A DNA stretch of 64,000 nt, from NCBI GenBank assembly GCA_041493605.1, contig JBGPZD010000001.1:5936-69935 (forward strand), in the 5' to 3' direction. Shown piece after piece: positions 6,023-53,878 of this stretch. How positions within the stretch are numbered: the first letter of the stretch is position 1; each line of letters opens with the position of its first letter. Source of the stretch: Candidatus Methylomirabilia bacterium (lineage in GTDB: Bacteria; Methylomirabilota; Methylomirabilia; Rokubacteriales; CSP1-6). Both the position numbers and the translations under genes were made by a program. A model generated the notes under the pieces. It had not been told where the DNA came from. It saw nothing but the letters and a program-made list of their open reading frames with translations, and made no database searches.

Positions 6023-7117
6023 TCAAATCCTCATGGGCATAATAACACAGAGCGCACCGTCTTCCTCGAAGCTTTTGATCACTCCGGGACTCAATCCATC
6101 CTTTACTTCGAGAATGATCTGCTCGCCCGTCTGCGCTCCGAGCGCGTCCAGCACATAGCGGGAATTGAATCCGATCGTGATCTCCTCGCCGGCGTATTGA
6201 ATCTCAACCTGCTCCTCGGCCTCCCCGAAATCCGGGCTGTACGCGGTCATTTTCAGGACGCCCGATGACAGAACGAACTTGACCGGCTTCGTGCGCTCCT
6301 CCGAGAGCACCGAGACCCGCCGTAGCGCCGCCGTCAGCGCCCCTCGCGCGATCGTGATGCGGTGCGGGTGCGCCTTCGGGACAACCTGCTCGTAATTCGG
6401 GAACGTCCCTTCGATCAGCCGCGCGATCAGCAGCACATTGGGCATTCGCAGCATGAACTGGTTCTCTCCGACGGTGATCTGGACCTCCTCCCCGGAGCCC
6501 ACAATGCGCGCGATCTCCTGGACGGCCTTCCGAGGCACGATACCGGACACCGCCGGCGCCCCGGCGGGCAGCGCGCGAACCGCCAGCGCCAGCCGGTGCC
6601 CATCGGTCGCGACCAGCCGCAGCTCCGTGTCGCGCACGACAAAGAGCACTCCGTTCAGCGCGTAGCGGCTCTCGTCGTGGGAGATGGCGAAGGTGGTCTG
6701 GGTCAGCATGTCGCGCAACATCTTGCCGTCGACGGTGATCCAGCTGGCCCCGGCCCCGTCGCCCACCGCCGGAAAATCCTCAGGGGTAAGCCCCACGAGC
6801 TTGTAGGACACTCCGCCGCACCGCAGCGCCACCCAGGCGTTCTCCTGGACTTTGAGGGACAGCGGTGCCGCCGGCAACTCCTTGACGATCTCCATGAGCT
6901 TCCGGGCCGATATCGTGATGGCCCCGGCCGCGGCCACCTTGGCCGGCGCCGACACCCGCACCCCGACCTCGAGGTCCGTGGCGGTCATCCGCACCGTGTC
7001 CCCCTGGGCCTCGAGCAGCACGTTGGCCAGGATGGGCAGCGTCTGGCGGGGCTCGACCACGTTGTGTACCATCTGGAGCCCGCGGAGAAACGCATCGCGA
7101 TCCACATGGACTTCCAT
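6023..7117 (-). CDS. dnaN: DNA polymerase III beta sliding clamp
   Basis: Starts MEVHVDRDAFLRGLQMVHNVVE with a GGAGG RBS upstream. ~365 aa, typical DnaN length, ending ...LCVIMPMRI. The track ORF 6023..7372 is extended upstream across the AT-rich intergenic region and is not used. Confidence 0.9.
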   Translation of the reverse strand: MEVHVDRDAFLRGLQMVHNVVEPRQTLPILANVLLEAQGDTVRMTATDLEVGVRVSAPAKVAAAGAITISARKLMEIVKELPAAPLSLKVQENAWVALRCGGVSYKLVGLTPEDFPAVGDGAGASWITVDGKMLRDMLTQTTFAISHDESRYALNGVLFVVRDTELRLVATDGHRLALAVRALPAGAPAVSGIVPRKAVQEIARIVGSGEEVQITVGENQFMLRMPNVLLIARLIEGTFPNYEQVVPKAHPHRITIARGALTAALRRVSVLSEERTKPVKFVLSSGVLKMTAYSPDFGEAEEQVEIQYAGEEITIGFNSRYVLDALGAQTGEQIILEVKDGLSPGVIKSFEEDGALCVIMPMRI

Positions 7118-7283
7118 AAAAGCCTCCGTTATTGAGGTAAGTAAGAAAACATCAAAATCAGTCGTCGTAAGAGGAGGCGGAGGTGTGGGTAGCGCGGAGT
7201 GCGCGGAAACGCATTGAACGGAAGGATGTTGGACGCGCGAAAATTGTGGACAGGATCGTGGATTGAGTGCCGGGCCGCTGGGA
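7118..7283. promoter_or_regulatory. AT-rich dnaA-dnaN intergenic region. Candidate DNA-unwinding element and part of oriC.
   Basis: Strikingly AT-rich run (ccataaaagcctccgttattgaggtaagtaagaaaacatcaaaatcag) in a ~68% GC genome. Degenerate DnaA-box-like TTGTGGACA and TGTGGGTAG are nearby. Confidence 0.45.
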
Positions 7284-8603
7284 TCACAGGTTGATGCTCT
7301 GGGTAAGTGTGTCCAGAGTCTTCTTGAATTTGGGATCTTCGCGGAGCAGCGCCTGGATCTTGTCGACCGCATGGAGAACGGTGGTATGGTCCTTGCCTCC
7401 GAAGGCGCGGCCGATCTCTGCGAGCGACATGTGGGTGAGCTGGCGGGCCAAGTACATGGCGATCTGGCGTGGGAAGGCCACGGCCTTGGTTCGGTTCTTG
7501 GCCCGCATGTCGGAGAGCTTGATGCCGAAGAACTCCGACGCCTTCCGCTGGATGTGCTCCACCGTGATGATGCGTTCTTCCTCCCCCCAGAGATCGGAGA
7601 GGACCTCCTGGGCCAAGTCGACGCTCATCTCGCGGCCGCTGAGCGAGCAGAAGGCAACCATGCGGGTGAGCGACCCCTCGATCTCGCGGATGTTCGCCTT
7701 GATGCGGGACGCGATCAAGTACGCCACGTCGTCGGGCAGACGGACACGCTCGATCTCCGCCTTCTTCTTGAGAATGGCGACGCGCGTCTCGAAGTCGGGG
7801 GGCTGGATGTCTGCGATGAGCCCCCACTCGAAGCGGGAGCGGAGCCGCTCCTCAATCTCGGGGATTTCTTTTGGCGCGGAATCGGACGAGACGACGATTT
7901 GTTTCCGCGCTTCGTAGAGGTCGTTGAAGGTGTGGAAGAACTCCTCCTGGGTGCGTTCCTTCCCCGAGATGAACTGGATGTCGTCGATCAGGAGTAGGTC
8001 GATGGTGCGGTACTTCGCCCGGAATTCCGCGGTGCGGTCGTAGCGGATGGCGTTGATCAGGTCGTTGGTGAACCGCTCCGAGGAGAGGTAGAGGAGCTTC
8101 ATGGTCGGATACAGGCGGGCGATCTGGTGGCCAACGGCGTGCAACAGGTGGGTCTTGCCCAGGCCGACACCGCCGTAGATGAACAGCGGGTTGTAGGCCT
8201 TGGAGGGCAGCTCCGCGACTGCCTGACAAGCCGCCTGGGCGAACTGGTTGGAGTTGCCGACGACGAAGGACTGGAACGTGTAGCGAGAGGACAGGCCCGT
8301 GGCAAGCGCGGCCGGCGCGGATGCGCTGGGCGCGGTTGGCGCGGGCGCGGCGCGCCCCGGCTCACGGTCGAGCTCGATGACGACGCGCGGGGCGCCGCCG
8401 AGCACATCGCGCGCGGCGGCTTCGAGCGCGGCGACGTGGTGCTGGGTCAGCCAGTCGCGCGTGAACTTGTTCGGGGCTGCGACGCGAAGGATATCGCCGT
8501 CGATCGCGGCCAGCCGGCAGGGCCGCAGCCAGGAGTCGAGGGCCGTATCGGGCAGCTTGCCCTCAAGTGTAGCGAGGAGCCGCTGCCACAAGGAGTCAAG
8601 CAT
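7284..8603 (-). CDS. dnaA: Chromosomal replication initiator DnaA
   Basis: 439 aa. AAA+ Walker A GGVGLGKTHLLHA. C-terminal DNA-binding helix-turn-helix region (AFPRQIAMYLARQLTHMSLAEIGRAFGGKDHTTVLHA). Confidence 0.95.
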   Translation of the reverse strand: MLDSLWQRLLATLEGKLPDTALDSWLRPCRLAAIDGDILRVAAPNKFTRDWLTQHHVAALEAAARDVLGGAPRVVIELDREPGRAAPAPTAPSASAPAALATGLSSRYTFQSFVVGNSNQFAQAACQAVAELPSKAYNPLFIYGGVGLGKTHLLHAVGHQIARLYPTMKLLYLSSERFTNDLINAIRYDRTAEFRAKYRTIDLLLIDDIQFISGKERTQEEFFHTFNDLYEARKQIVVSSDSAPKEIPEIEERLRSRFEWGLIADIQPPDFETRVAILKKKAEIERVRLPDDVAYLIASRIKANIREIEGSLTRMVAFCSLSGREMSVDLAQEVLSDLWGEEERIITVEHIQRKASEFFGIKLSDMRAKNRTKAVAFPRQIAMYLARQLTHMSLAEIGRAFGGKDHTTVLHAVDKIQALLREDPKFKKTLDTLTQSINL

Positions 8604-8947
8604 TTTCGATAGTTTGTCCGAGCCTGGGGAGGGAAGTTACACACAGAGTTATCCACAGGTGTGGATAAGCTTGGGCGATTCGGCTGGGCTGGCATTTCGA
8701 ACCGGCGCTGCGGCGGACCAGGTCGCAACCTGTCATCGTGTCAACCGAGAGCGAACGGGGAACCGCTAGCCCTGAGCCTCGTTCCTCGCAGGAGCGCCGG
8801 CCAGCCCGGGCCCGCTTCGCGTGGAGCGTGGGAGTGCGAACCTTACCACAGCGCGAAACGTCCTCGCAAGAGGGTTGCGCGCCTTGACTTGCCGAGGAGT
8901 GGTCAGTAGACTACGGTGGTTCTGCGAGCGAGAGGGGGGAATTCTCC
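8604..8947. promoter_or_regulatory. dnaA upstream region with inverted perfect DnaA boxes (TTATCCACA at 8648..8656 and TGTGGATAA at 8659..8667). Candidate oriC box cluster and dnaA autoregulatory site.
   Basis: Two consensus 9-mers, TTATCCACAggTGTGGATAA, in palindromic arrangement, plus a weaker TTACCACAG near 8843. Located between dnaA and rpmH. Confidence 0.6.
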
Positions 8948-50140: not shown

Positions 50141-50635
50141 ATGGCGATCCAGCGCACTCCGATGACGCGGGCGGGCTACGACCGCCTGAAATCCGAGCTC
50201 GAGCGGCTCAAGAAGCAACGACCGCTCCTCAGCAAGGCCATCGGCGAGGCGCGCGCCCACGGGGACCTGTCCGAGAATGCCGAGTACCACGCCGCGCGTG
50301 AGAAGCAGGGCTTCATCGAGGCGCGCATCAAGGAGCTCGAGGGCAGATTCAGCACCGCCGAGGTGCTCGATCCGCCCACCTCCGGGGACCGGGTGACCTT
50401 CGGCTCCACCGTCAGGCTCGAGGACGAGGCTGGCAAGGAGGCCCGCTATCAAATCGTGGGGTCGGACGAAGCGGACCCGACCCACGGCCGCATCTCGATC
50501 ATGGCGCCCCTGGCCCGCACGCTCATCGGCAAGAGGGTGGGCGATACGGTGGTGGCTGAGCTGCCCGGCGGCAAGAAGACCTTCGAGATCCTGGAGGCGA
50601 ATTTCCCCTGGCCGGAGGACGGCCAGCCGGGCTGA
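50141..50635 (+). CDS. greA: Transcription elongation factor GreA
   Basis: MAIQRTPMTRAGYDRLKSELERLKK ... AHGDLSENAEYHAAREKQGFIEARIKELE. Has a short C-terminal extension. Confidence 0.9.
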   Translation: MAIQRTPMTRAGYDRLKSELERLKKQRPLLSKAIGEARAHGDLSENAEYHAAREKQGFIEARIKELEGRFSTAEVLDPPTSGDRVTFGSTVRLEDEAGKEARYQIVGSDEADPTHGRISIMAPLARTLIGKRVGDTVVAELPGGKKTFEILEANFPWPEDGQPG

Positions 50636-51766
50636 TCAGGACCTCAGCGCTTCGCGCAGCTCCCGCGTGAGGGCTTCGACGGTGCCGCGAGTGCCACCCG
50701 CCAGCTTGGCCTTCCACTCCTTCTCGGTTTCGAAGCGGCGGTCCTTGAGCCGCTCGCCCCAAGGCTTGACGGCGTCGCGGATCGCGTGGAAGTCGAAGGC
50801 GTCGCGCTTGAGCTCCCGGGCGCGGGCCATCACGTCCGGGGCCACGCGGATGAAGGCGCGCAATGCGGCGCCAGTCTTGATCGAGTACTTCCGTCCCGCC
50901 CAAGCCGTCGGGAAGGCGGCGGCCACCGCCTTCATGTAGCTCAGGAAGAAGCGCTTGGCGTTCTGTCGCAGCTCGTTCATGCGCGCGCCGCCGCCGATCT
51001 TCTCCACCGCTTCGAGGAAATCCACGATCTCCTCGGCCAGCGGCGCCTGCGAGACGCGCCCGCGGCCGGTGCCCAGCATCTTGATGTCGCCGTGCAGCGG
51101 CGAGGTCTCGTCCTCGTTGAGCGAGCGGATCACGTCGTGGGCCAGGGCCTGATTGGGGTCGGGGTAGAGCTTGCGGCCCGCGAGGCTCACGATGTGCGAT
51201 GGGTTCAGGCGCGTGTGCTTGGCGTTGATGGTGACGAAGAGCTCCACGATCTGCCGCGCGTCGAGCCGGTCGAAAAGGACGGCGGGCACTTCGATCCCCA
51301 GGTTCTCGCCGGCCTGGGTCAGCGCGTGGAGGGCCAGCAGCCGGTGCTGGCCGTCGAGCACGCGGAGCACGCCGTGCTCCTCCGGGATCTGCAGCAGGCC
51401 CAGGTCGTGCTGGCTCGCCATGGGCGTGAAGGTGAAGCGCTTTTCCGAGGTGATGATGACGGCGCCCGGGATGGCCGGCAGCGTGCCCGCGTCTTTGCAA
51501 TCCCGGTAGTAGCCGACGAGCTCGTCGATCTTGCGCCGGATCACCGGCCGCTGGTAGGCGGTCTCGCTCTCGCCGATGCGCTTCTCGAGGGCCTCCCAGT
51601 TCACGCGCGCCCGGGTCGAGCGCTTCGGCTTGGCGGGTCCGGCCTCGGCGCCCCCGTAGCCCAGCACCTCGAATTTGACGAGGCGGTCGATGTCCTTGGC
51701 CGAGAAGGAGGCCTGGAAGAACTCGACTCCGAACTGCTTCACGCGATGCGCGGGGACCGTGATCAT
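50636..51766 (-). CDS. DGQHR-domain protein (DndB/DpdB-like, ParB/Srx-fold superfamily)
   Basis: 376 aa with the literal DGQHR motif (VLDGQHRLLALHAL) and a DndB-like FVTINAKHTRLNPSHIVSL region. GGAGG RBS. Stop is adjacent to and convergent with greA. No dndACDE or dpdA is nearby. Confidence 0.7.
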   Translation of the reverse strand: MITVPAHRVKQFGVEFFQASFSAKDIDRLVKFEVLGYGGAEAGPAKPKRSTRARVNWEALEKRIGESETAYQRPVIRRKIDELVGYYRDCKDAGTLPAIPGAVIITSEKRFTFTPMASQHDLGLLQIPEEHGVLRVLDGQHRLLALHALTQAGENLGIEVPAVLFDRLDARQIVELFVTINAKHTRLNPSHIVSLAGRKLYPDPNQALAHDVIRSLNEDETSPLHGDIKMLGTGRGRVSQAPLAEEIVDFLEAVEKIGGGARMNELRQNAKRFFLSYMKAVAAAFPTAWAGRKYSIKTGAALRAFIRVAPDVMARARELKRDAFDFHAIRDAVKPWGERLKDRRFETEKEWKAKLAGGTRGTVEALTRELREALRS

Positions 51767-51911
51767 GAACGCCTCCAGCTCGTAGGAGCCAACTGCGAAG
51801 ACCGATCCTAGGCTCGGCTACTCTAATCGAAGCCTAAACGCACGTCAACATTTACGTTTTCGCCGCTTGGCCGACTGGCGCCACCCCTAGATATTGTGCT
51901 CGATCTCTGGC

Positions 51912-51944
51912 TTATCCACAAGATGTGGGTAACCTGTGGATGGA
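51912..51944. promoter_or_regulatory. Ectopic DnaA-box cluster: TTATCCACA (perfect), TGTGGGTAA and TGTGGATGG.
   Basis: cTTATCCACAagaTGTGGGTAAccTGTGGATGG lies in the low-GC region ~150 bp upstream of the DGQHR gene start. The same 9-mer is in the dnaA upstream cluster at 8648..8667. Confidence 0.55.
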
Positions 51945-52171
51945 CAAATCCCTACCAATAGAGGTGGATTCGAGGACATTTGCTGAGCGAGAGCCGGCAA
52001 CCCGAGCGGTTGAATCAAACGGACGCGGCCTTCCCAATCCGGAGAGAAGCGAGAACGGGCGATCGTGCGAAACATTAGGCGCAGTCGGCACACTGGGCGA
52101 AGTCCTATTGCGTTCGGCTCTCTTCGCGCGCGCCCCGGTCATATCGAGGCCTCCACACCGGGCCTCCGCCC

Positions 52172-52199
52172 TTGACGAGACCGACCGGCGGGATATCAT
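52172..52199 (+). promoter_or_regulatory. Candidate sigma70 promoter TTGACG-N16-TATCAT for the membrane-protein/hydrolase operon.
   Basis: Near-consensus hexamers ~45 nt upstream of an AAGGAGG RBS and the ATG at 52249. Confidence 0.4.
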
Positions 52200-52248
52200 C
52201 GTCGCGCCGCGGCAGCGCGAGACGGGACACGAGCGGCAAGGAGGCTCC

Positions 52249-52986
52249 ATGAATCCCGAGGTTTGGAGCGCCATTCAGACGGCCCTCGACGACTACGTCA
52301 AATACCTCTGGCCCATGGCGGTGGCCCTCGCGGGGGTCGGCATCGCCACCATGGCGGCGCTGCAGATGGTCAAGGATCTTTTCCGACTTCAGTGGTATTT
52401 CAACCGGTGGCAGGTCCGCCGCTGGCTCGGCCAGCGGGCCCGGCGCTGCCACGAGCACGACGCGAGCTTTTCGCCCGACGCAGGCTGGGCTCACGTGCAG
52501 CTGATCACGCTGGCGACAGCCGGCGACGAGGACGCCTTCTACTCGCTCGACTGCCAGCAGATCGCGGCCCAGATGGCGGCCGCCTCGCAAATCGCGCTCG
52601 ATTATCCCCGCCTCTACTCCCACCTGTTCCTGTGTCTGGCGGCCGAGGCCGAGCCCGCCGACGTCAGGCGGGTGCTGGGGCCGCCGCCCAGGCCGGCGGC
52701 GAAGGACGCCTGGATCGCGGCCCGGAACCGGGTCGGCCACCAGGTCCAGCGGACGCTGGACGGTCTGCAGATCTCGATCACGAACCGTTGGAAGCGCTCG
52801 AACCAGCTCGTCTCCTACCTGCTCAACGTGCTGTTCGTGATGCTCGCGTTGCGATCCCTCAACGCGCGGCTGACGTCGATGCCGATCGTTGACTCCATGC
52901 TGGTCGCCCTGCTGAGCGGCTTCCTGGCCCCAGTGGCCAAGGACCTCGTGACCGCGCTGCAGCAGCTCCGGTCGCGGGCGCGATGA
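52249..52986 (+). CDS. Membrane protein of unknown function (N-terminal TM, two C-terminal TMs)
   Basis: Strong AAGGAGG RBS. Starts MNPEVWSAIQTALDDYVKYLWPMAVALAGVGIATMAAL. C-terminal LVSYLLNVLFVMLAL and SMLVALLSGFLAP helices. The track ORF 51925..52986 is extended upstream. Confidence 0.6.
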   Translation: MNPEVWSAIQTALDDYVKYLWPMAVALAGVGIATMAALQMVKDLFRLQWYFNRWQVRRWLGQRARRCHEHDASFSPDAGWAHVQLITLATAGDEDAFYSLDCQQIAAQMAAASQIALDYPRLYSHLFLCLAAEAEPADVRRVLGPPPRPAAKDAWIAARNRVGHQVQRTLDGLQISITNRWKRSNQLVSYLLNVLFVMLALRSLNARLTSMPIVDSMLVALLSGFLAPVAKDLVTALQQLRSRAR

Positions 52987-53864
52987 ACCCGGAGACCTGG
53001 CATGAGCTGAGCGTCCGCACCCTCCCGGTCGGCGGTCCCGTGGCCCCCGAGGTGGCCGAGGGGCCGCCCCTCTTCGTCCAGGGGCGGAGCCGCCTCGTCG
53101 TTTTCGTCCACGGGTACAACAACACCCTGTCGGTCGCCCGCGGATACTACACGGTGTTCGGCGGGCACCTCCAGGACGCGTATTCCGACGGGGGGCCGCT
53201 GGTGCCGGATCTGCTGGCGAAGTTTCACTGGCCCGGCGACGCCGGCCTGGGACCTATCTCGTTCATCAGTTACCCATTCGAGATCGAAGACGCCGAGAAT
53301 TCGGCGAAGAAGCTGGCCGGCTTCCTGCGCGGTCTCCGGGGTCCCGGGGGCGCGCCGATGCAGCTCGACATCGTGGCCGCGTCGCTCGGCTGCCGCGTCC
53401 TGCTCGAGACGATCCACGAGCTCTTGCCCACCCTCCAGCAGCTCGCGGTCCATTTTGGCGTGGTCTGCCTCATGGCCGCCGCGGTGCCGGTTGACATGAT
53501 GGACCCGGGCGAGCGGCTCGAGGGCACCTTGGAGGCGCCGCGGCGGCTTCTGGTGCTGCACTCGACGGGGGACCGCGTGCTCCACTACGCCTTCCCGCTC
53601 GGCCAGACCGCCGCCGGCGAAGGGTTCTTCCCCACCGCGCTCGGCCGCTTTGGCCCGCCGCCCTGGGCGCCGGGCGAGCACGTGCCGGTGGACGAGCTCG
53701 ACCACGGCGAGTACTGGGGCGCCGAGGTCTCCGCGTATGAGATCGCGAAGCGGCTCGGCCTGGGCCCGGTCCGCGAGCGCGTCCCGGCGCGCTCGCTGCC
53801 GCGCTATGACACGCCGGCCCGCGATCTGCCCACGCGAGACCTCCCGAATTACCAAGGGCCCTGA
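52983..53864 (+). CDS. Alpha/beta-hydrolase, DUF900-like (putative esterase/lipase), cytoplasmic
   Basis: ATGA overlap with the upstream gene. [19 protein letters not shown]. Nucleophile elbow-like [21 protein letters not shown]. No signal peptide. Starts MNPETW, like its upstream partner. Confidence 0.6.
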
Positions 53865-53878
53865 TCAAGGAGCGAGAC

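Follow-up and report, generated by a model that had tools for sequence, protein, structure and literature searches.

We describe here a 32-bp module of three DnaA boxes that lies upstream of an orphan DGQHR-domain gene in a member of the Rokubacteria, that is conserved in 37 species at a nearly constant distance from the promoter of this gene, and whose architecture recurs at the dnaA promoter of the same genome. The DNA in question is a stretch of 64,000 nucleotides from Candidatus Methylomirabilia bacterium (order Rokubacteriales; contig JBGPZD010000001.1, positions 5,936 to 69,935 of the forward strand), referred to in what follows as the window, with all positions numbered from its first letter. 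DnaA boxes outside of the origin of replication, oriC, tie both gene expression and the availability of the initiator to the replication cycle, and the examples described so far are limited to a small number of model organisms in culture. Judging from the comparisons presented below the protein that binds the module is very probably DnaA, and on balance we favor its assignment as a conserved cooperative operator of the region upstream of the DGQHR gene, one that would couple transcription to the level of DnaA or to the replication status of the cell.

Results

The three-box module and its expectation by chance

The sequence between 51911 and 51944 reads cTTATCCACAagaTGTGGGTAAccTGTGGATGG, and within it positions 51912-51943 of the + strand can be written as TTATCCACA-aga-TGTGGGTAA-cc-TGTGGATGG. 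Scoring of each 9-mer against TTATCCACA, or against the relaxed form TTATNCACA, gives three boxes with 0, 1 and 2 mismatches, together with a weak remnant further upstream:

51912..51920 (+), DnaA box I, TTATCCACA, 0 mismatches, gene-proximal, its end 63 nt upstream of the DGQHR -35 element
51924..51932 (-), DnaA box II, TTACCCACA (TGTGGGTAA on the + strand), 1 mismatch (T4>C), 3 nt from box I
51935..51943 (-), DnaA box III, CCATCCACA (TGTGGATGG on the + strand), 2 mismatches, 2 nt from box II
51912..51943, the whole module, I(->) 3 nt II(<-) 2 nt III(<-), 32 bp with fixed spacing
51963..51971 (-), weak remnant of a fourth box, GAATCCACC, 3 mismatches

Box I faces in one direction and boxes II and III in the other, so that in the orientation of the DGQHR gene the module, which is intergenic, becomes CCATCCACA gg TTACCCACA tct TGTGGATAA. 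A first-pass annotation of this DNA had described one perfect box and two boxes with one or two mismatches, in opposing orientations and roughly 150 bp from the DGQHR start, and this description is borne out at 51912-51943, with box I starting 146 bp from the start codon at 51766. Box III is CTATCCACA in the near-identical sister strains L003 and L004. Judged by its place in the alignment, the remnant at 51963-51971 is probably the positional homologue of AAATCCACA in locus L005 and of the extra tandem boxes TCATCCACAgCTATCCACA found in L006-L016.

The window has a GC content of 68% and contains three perfect boxes and a single box with one mismatch, two of them at the dnaA promoter and two in the cluster. 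This total of four boxes with at most one mismatch is to be compared with 2.0 expected from a shuffle test, a difference that alone is not significant. Under a Markov model perfect boxes turn up 0.053 times per 64 kb, and in 300 simulated stretches of 64 kb neither a pair made up of a perfect and a one-mismatch box nor a triple was obtained; when the AT-richer local composition is used pairs arise at 0.0033 per 64 kb and triples stay at 0. It is the clustering of the boxes in these simulations, unlike their number alone, that is significant, and a cluster produced by chance is excluded. Much the same is seen in 1.25 Mb of related loci from 80 species, where the region between -260 and -60 of the DGQHR start codon holds 73 boxes with at most one mismatch (19 perfect) and the remaining 1.24 Mb hold 23 (1 perfect), corresponding to a 245-fold higher box density in the 200 bp upstream of DGQHR. 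A second two-box cluster was sought across the 1.25 Mb and none was found besides the one upstream of DGQHR. The frequency count of such 9-mers that had been proposed as a check on the original observation thus shows, for both the window and the related loci, that the cluster is not expected by chance.

Conservation across Rokubacteria

The set of loci used for comparison was obtained by scanning genomes with the DGQHR protein, giving 80 loci from 80 species-level genomes with protein identities of 82-96%; L001-L004 are the window species and its near-identical strains. Modules were scored with the fixed 2-/3-nt spacing as the number of mismatches out of 27 positions. The window species scores 3/27 and a module with at most 9/27 mismatches, mostly at most 7, is present in 36 of the 80 comparison species, for a total of 37, with the remaining species scoring 12-16 of 27. 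In all 37 cases the order in gene orientation is box(->) 2 nt box(->) 3 nt box(<-). Examples of the module from other species are:

L041, TTATCCACAcgATACCCACAtctTGTGGATAA
L035, TTATCCACAaaTTAGCCACAactTGTGGATAA
L025, TTATCCCCAcaCTACCCACAtctGGTGGATAA

In a neighbor-joining tree of the DGQHR protein the 37 module-bearing species make up one of two major clades, in which L037 and L066 have decayed remnants of the module. Mean pairwise identities are 0.72-0.77 for the module and 0.72-0.77 for the DGQHR promoter core; the corresponding values are 0.21-0.33 for the 32 bp upstream of the module, 0.37-0.43 for the spacer between module and promoter and 0.12-0.30 for the 5' untranslated region (UTR). 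At the level of individual boxes, the position homologous to box I is TTATCC[A/C]CA in the 37 species, the core ACCCACA of box II is nearly invariant and the 3-nt spacer TnT is kept, and box III conserves ATCC[C/A]CA, with T4, C5, C6, C8 and A9 invariant or nearly so. A C in place of A at position 7 (TCCCCA) is found in box III of 28/37 species and in box I of 11/37. The subclade comprising L006-L016, L027 and L028 has two additional tandem near-consensus boxes, TCATCCACAgCTATCCACA, approximately 9 nt further upstream, giving a 4+1 array.

The second clade has the same gene with the same promoter and lacks the module, another gene ending near the promoter. Within it L073 and L075 have nonetheless retained a tandem pair of boxes, at a distance of exactly 64 nt from the -35 of that promoter, and L058 has a weak array. 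No replacement cluster was found within +/-10 kb of the locus in species of the second clade.

The same design at the dnaA promoter

The dnaA gene and the element related to the module are located as follows:

7284-8603 (-), dnaA, assigned by Pfam, with rpmH divergent
8637..8668 (-), sister element at the dnaA promoter, in dnaA orientation TTATCCACA cc TGTGGATAA ctc TGTGTGTAA, that is I(->) 2 nt II(<-) 3 nt III(<-)

The boxes at the dnaA promoter are a perfect inverted pair at 8649-8657 and 8660-8668 and a third box, TTACACACA, at 8637-8645. That the 9-mer of the cluster also forms a perfect inverted pair upstream of dnaA had been correctly noted in the first-pass annotation, but the interval given there, 8648..8667, has to be replaced by the above coordinates and the third box added. 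Between -65 and -34 of the dnaA start TTATCCACA cc TGTGGATAA nnc TGTGTGTAA is invariant in the window and in four other distinct Rokubacteria sequences, these being the four represented by seven loci (L086-L092) whose DnaA is 81-89% identical to the window protein. The two modules of the genome therefore have a common design, three boxes in 32 bp with box I opposed to II and III, and differ in their spacers (2/3 nt at dnaA and 3/2 nt at DGQHR), in box quality, with two perfect boxes and TTACACACA at dnaA, and in placement. The dnaA module lies 34-65 nt from the start codon, where it probably overlaps the promoter, whereas some 60 nt separate the DGQHR module from the -35 downstream of it, and its orientation with respect to the gene is reversed.

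The DnaA protein itself has a canonical domain IV (Pfam Bac_DnaA_C, 2.4e-29). Residues R399, D433, H434, T435 and H439 of the E. coli protein were reportedly identified as base-contacting by Fujikawa and co-workers in 2003. All five have their equivalents kept when the window protein is aligned to E. coli domain IV as seen in its complex with a DnaA box (1J1V). Because the same 9-mer is present at the genome's own dnaA promoter, domain IV is canonical, and the boxes are conserved in 37 species at a near-constant distance from a promoter, the 32-bp module is, as far as comparison of sequences can establish, a phylogenetic footprint of genuine, selected DnaA-type boxes.

Between dnaA and the DGQHR locus there are 43 kb in the window and about 85 kb in the contig that carries L009 and L086. 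The cumulative GC skew has its minimum near 7 kb, which places the origin beside dnaA, about 44 kb from the cluster. Thus, the 43 kb from oriC of the first-pass annotation stands as the distance to dnaA, with the location of oriC next to that gene a probable one that follows from the skew minimum. The dnaN gene starts near 7112 (-) and is separated from dnaA by a 170-bp spacer with boxes and an AT-rich run. This spacer (approximately 7113-7283, and its counterparts in L086-L092) has a conserved box, CTACCCACA, CTATCCACA or TCATCCACA, followed by a conserved trinucleotide-repeat-like run, ctacgacgacg, and by an AT-rich stretch immediately before the dnaN ribosome-binding site. Its layout suggests the region of oriC that unwinds, as found in B. 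subtilis, and its position coincides with the skew minimum.

Linkage of the module to the DGQHR promoter

The distance between the end of box I and the DGQHR -35 is 59-65 nt in 37/37 species, with a bimodal distribution (59-60 or 63-65 nt), while the 5' UTR ranges from 20 to 65 nt. The sequence on the other side of the module is far from constant. Here the ancestral landmark is maoC, at distances that extend from 281 to 9775 bp, and the immediate upstream neighbor comes from at least nine families, including an ABC ATPase, GDT1, a periplasmic binding protein, an amidohydrolase, IlvD/Edd, an ATP-dependent DNA ligase, a SnoaL-like protein, a small secreted protein and MaoC. Rearrangements that separate the module from the promoter were not found among the 37 species. 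Since the distance from box to promoter is held nearly constant and both the neighbors and the 5' UTR vary, we regard the module, the promoter and the DGQHR gene as the conserved unit.

The interval between module and maoC (51944-53878 in the window; the flanks of L005-L042) is a hotspot of gene insertion and rearrangement. In the window it contains:

52172-52199 (+), promoter-like site TTGACG-16-TATCAT, from a promoter scan
52249-52986 (+), gene of a 245-residue membrane protein without a family match in a profile search
52983-53864 (+), gene of a DUF900 hydrolase, with maoC beyond it on the same strand

The genes of the 245-residue protein and of the DUF900 hydrolase lie beside DGQHR only in L001-L004 and are found at that position in 0/80 other species, so that the pair is an insertion limited to the window species and not the conserved partner of the module. 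In one subclade, L034-L042, a divergent near-consensus promoter, TTGACA-N17/18-TAGAGT, lies 29-78 nt upstream of the module and is directed toward maoC or the gene that replaces it; in these loci the module is thus located between two back-to-back promoters, at a variable distance from the second.

The DGQHR gene and its promoter

The gene and its upstream elements are arranged as follows:

50636..51766 (-), orphan DGQHR-domain gene, 376 residues, motif LDGQHRL, with a GGAGG Shine-Dalgarno sequence at its start
51820..51848 (-), predicted sigma-70-type promoter of the gene, TTGACG-17 nt-TAGAGT, from the promoter scan
51849..51911 (-), spacer of 63 nt between box I and the -35, 59-65 nt in 37/37 species and weakly conserved in sequence

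The DGQHR protein scores 120 bits against TIGR03187 (cut-off 58.9) and falls below the cut-offs of the DpdB and DndB equivalog models. Its gene is monocistronic and convergent with greA (50141-50635, +), the stop codons of the two abutting at 50635/50636 with 0 intergenic bases and no recognizable terminator. The identity of 82-96% over 80 species indicates that this is a core and very conserved gene and not one belonging to an island; in one other species (L009/L086, on the same 180.5-kb contig) the DGQHR protein is 94% and DnaA 84% identical to the respective window proteins. Conservation of this kind is unusual for a family normally found in defence islands, and there are no dnd or dpd partner genes near the orphan locus. 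In a homologue search the matches listed belong to Rokubacteria and other Methylomirabilota, with identities of at least 85%. A sequence search of the protein against the Protein Data Bank returned noise only, and an AlphaFold model built from a shallow alignment of 25 sequences is unusable, with a mean pLDDT (predicted local distance difference test) of 55 and values below 50 in the DGQHR domain.

Transcription is predicted to start near 51813, placing the module at about -95 to -130. The promoter takes the form TTGACA-N17-TAGAGT across species, and the larger block AAAAnCCCTCTG-TTGACA-GGGGTTTg...TAnAnT is kept in the 37 module-bearing species and in 16/16 other loci inspected, including those of the clade without the module. 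In both clades (37 + 16 loci; 51835-51860, -, in the window and the homologous positions in L005-L084) the -35 lies between the arms of an inverted repeat, CCCCTCTG-TTGACA-GGGG, with an A-tract before it. The repeat might serve as an operator, perhaps one through which the DGQHR protein regulates its own gene, as DndB is reported to do in Salmonella. The spacer between box I and the -35 has an A/T-rich ATAT/ATCT patch, centered near -70 from the predicted transcription start, that may be the site of a second factor and that has on either side short inverted repeats that differ between species in sequence and register (CCCC..GGGG, CACC..GGTG, TGCCC..GGGCA, TGTCaaGACA). RNAalifold found no consensus structure in the 59-65-nt spacer, an Rfam search of 51600-52400 gave no match and blastn against plasmids also gave none.

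Comparison with known DnaA-box clusters

The closest parallels are in B. subtilis, where clusters of DnaA boxes near oriC, conserved upstream of the same genes in relatives, regulate their neighbors (sda, ywlC, yydA) and have a dual role, namely transcriptional control of the neighboring gene by DnaA and negative control of initiation (PMC2533591, PMC3245932). Like the module these clusters (yqeG-sda, ywlB-ywlC, yycS-yydA) consist of intergenic TTATCCACA-type boxes that lie outside oriC, in the vicinity of the origin, and that are conserved with the same gene. The module is likewise intergenic, close to oriC, and upstream of the same gene in 37 species. It differs in the number of boxes with at most one mismatch, which is 4-10 within about 45-95 bp in the B. 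subtilis clusters and 2 in the window, where there is also one box with two mismatches; in some relatives the number reaches 3-5. Measured against the definition of at least four boxes with no more than one mismatch to TTATNCACA within ~100 bp (PMC2533591, Table 2), the module falls short, with 2 in the window, 3 in L003/L004, and 3 together with 2 weaker ones in the L006-L016 subclade. The neighboring gene and the phylum are also different, and the module is known at present from its sequence.

The cores of the E. coli DnaA-reactivating sites, DARS1 and DARS2, are defined by three boxes with I opposed to II and III (PMC6868365). In NC_000913 the two cores are TTATCCACT-attcc-TGTGGATAA-cca-TGTGTATTA and TTATTCACC-ttttc-TGTGGATAG-agt-TGTGAAGAA, respectively, each with 5/3-nt spacers. 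They resemble the module in orientation, in combining one consensus box with weaker ones and in lying where a gene has its promoter, uvrB and mutH, respectively. The Rokubacterial spacers, in contrast, are 3/2 (DGQHR) and 2/3 nt (dnaA) rather than 5/3, and it is box I rather than box II that is perfect. Neither IHF nor Fis sites were identified at the module, IHF having been sought by eye. A conserved organization of DARS2 is reported only for close relatives of E. coli among the beta- and gamma-proteobacteria (PMC5742627). The datA locus, with five high-affinity boxes (PMC3245932), is another non-origin cluster that lies fairly near the origin and influences DnaA availability (PMC5742627, PMC3245932), and by analogy the module may do the same. 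However, datA needs an IHF site in addition to its ~five high-affinity boxes, and the module, which has one perfect box, two weaker ones, a 3-mismatch remnant and no IHF site recognizable by eye, lacks this combination. On the features tested, then, the module belongs to neither family, although it may work like DARS or datA.

Gln208 of E. coli DnaA, which is needed for DARS activity, corresponds to Asn in the window protein in an alignment to the DnaA of B. subtilis, where this residue is likewise Asn.

Discussion

Among the roles initially suggested for the cluster, control of the DGQHR gene by DnaA is the one best supported, given boxes that are conserved in 37 species at a near-constant distance from the promoter. 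In the mechanism that we envisage perfect box I would nucleate binding of DnaA, which would then spread to the weaker boxes II and III through head-to-head (I-II) and head-to-tail (II-III) contacts, and as a result of this nucleation and spreading box occupancy would track the cellular level or activity of DnaA. The signal would modulate the strong sigma-70-type promoter 59-65 bp downstream, tying DGQHR expression to replication status, with DNA bending, looping, or cooperation with a binder of the A/T patch in the spacer as candidate means. At a distance from dnaA of 43 kb, or of about 85 kb in a second species, the locus would be duplicated early, and it might also be a small sink for DnaA, like the origin-proximal clusters of B. 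subtilis. DnaA binding, and the sign and mechanism of its effect on transcription, are what we infer from the conservation and arrangement described above.

A number of observations weigh against this picture of a DnaA operator. The module lies ~95-130 bp upstream of the predicted start, outside the usual windows for steric repression or for direct contact by an activator, and is too distant for simple occlusion of the promoter. The two classes of distance, 59-60 and 63-65 nt, imply that the helical face is not conserved, and the existence of a second clade with gene and promoter and without the module implies that an input from DnaA is dispensable for expression. In the protein the equivalent of E. 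coli P423, in the alignment to 1J1V, is Ala, and in the boxes the C7 variants should weaken DnaA binding. With respect to the latter it is the subclade with weakened C7 boxes that carries the two extra tandem boxes, which we count in favor of the operator assignment.

The primary role of the module could be in the control of DnaA itself, as a titration site or as a datA-like inactivating or DARS-like reactivating site that merely resides upstream of DGQHR. The DARS1 and DARS2 cores have the same arrangement, I(->) II(<-) III(<-) (NC_000913; PMC6868365), boxes I and II together span 21 bp, within the 19-26 bp of a head-to-head dimer model (PMC6868365), the position 43-85 kb from dnaA falls in the origin-proximal zone where the B. 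subtilis clusters are most effective (PMC3245932), and a helical phase that is not conserved is what one expects if the promoter is not the target. Nevertheless the spacers of 3/2 nt are not the 5/3 nt of both E. coli DARS cores, this class of orientation is expected in 1/4 of random triples, and DARS activity was found in only 2/52 similarly arranged box pairs of E. coli (PMC5835720). Three boxes, of which one is perfect, offer little capacity for titration when datA has five high-affinity boxes and a B. subtilis cluster 4-10, and in 37 species the module has never been parted from the promoter by rearrangement. Half of the Rokubacteria lack the module and have no replacement cluster within +/-10 kb, and this loss without local replacement speaks mildly against an indispensable role in the DnaA cycle. 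Taken together we consider a primary role in DnaA control unlikely. Another function that could be proposed for bound DnaA is that of a transcriptional roadblock or insulator against read-through from the genes inserted upstream, rather than a regulator of initiation. Such a function would fit with a hotspot of rearrangement that has produced at least nine different neighbors, with a position and phase relative to the promoter that are loosely constrained, and with the coincidence of the two extra tandem boxes and a co-directional GDT1 gene that ends 204-215 nt before the DGQHR start (L006, L008, L010, L012, L013, L015 and L016). Schaefer and Messer are said to have found, in their asnC/mioC work, that DnaA-box complexes of E. 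coli block RNA polymerase, which also counts toward a roadblock. Yet the module is present where the upstream gene is divergent (maoC; L035, L040-L042) and there is nothing to block, and the extra boxes follow the clade and not the GDT1 arrangement alone, so that we rate the roadblock as very unlikely.

A shade less probable still is that the repeats are the operator of some other DNA-binding protein, either the DGQHR protein or a dimeric factor recognizing CCACA-N3-TGTGG. Boxes I and II do form an imperfect palindrome, with conserved spacer bases T22 and T24, the C7 variants deviate from the DnaA core, and DndB binds its own promoter region (PMC4507180). Against this, the same 9-mer and three-box design are invariant at the dnaA promoter, where the inverted pair is separated by 2 nt rather than the 3 nt found at DGQHR; a rigid dimeric factor would hardly accept both spacings, whereas flexibly linked DnaA monomers would, which favors DnaA. 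The third box and the extra tandem boxes are moreover direct repeats with a periodicity of about 10-11 bp, and the second clade has a DGQHR protein that is 82-85% identical and no module, so that the module is not the obligatory operator of that protein. The first-pass annotation had also raised the possibility that the cluster controls the divergent + strand operon encoding the 245-residue membrane protein and the DUF900 hydrolase. The cluster does lie in the intergenic region that this operon shares with DGQHR, and from the end of box III it is 229 bp to the -35 (at 52172) of a good promoter, TTGACG-16-TATCAT, very close to the ~230 bp estimated at the time. The gene pair, however, flanks DGQHR only in L001-L004, 36/80 other species keep the module in the absence of these genes, and the upstream distance is highly variable; as a conserved function, control of this operon is effectively refuted by the comparison, and we regard it as the least probable role of all.

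Several other candidate assignments were rejected. A secondary origin at the module lacks an adjoining AT-rich unwinding element, the lower GC content being accounted for by the promoter. The repeats are not the end of a mobile element or the boundary of an island, as gene and repeats are conserved together and the insertions are variable. A second promoter with its -35 overlapping box I was considered as well; the -10-like ATAT found in some species is not conserved and the promoter scan called none.

In kind the module is familiar, an origin-proximal DnaA-box cluster or DnaA-controlled promoter, found here in an uncultured soil phylum and with an unusual conserved partner gene. There is a slim chance that the module, at the dnaA promoter and again 43-85 kb away, is a Rokubacterial element of the DARS or datA type that acts on the nucleotide state of DnaA through head-to-head dimers; if this were true, chromosomal elements of the DnaA cycle, characterized only in E. 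coli and close relatives, would extend to a distant uncultured phylum. What the present work provides is a cleanly footprinted DnaA module with a 32-bp architecture that recurs at the dnaA promoter and with a defined target promoter. With the natural loss variants, in the second clade and in the decayed modules of L037 and L066, these features supply ready-made constructs for studies of DnaA binding and of head-to-head assembly at a spacing other than that of E. coli. The analysis also flags an orphan DGQHR-domain protein, of a type usually seen as an accessory of defence islands, as the product of a core, origin-proximal and very highly conserved gene, and a linked possibility, again a slim one, is that this protein is a ParB-fold chromosome factor of the core genome, controlled by DnaA, and no accessory of defence.

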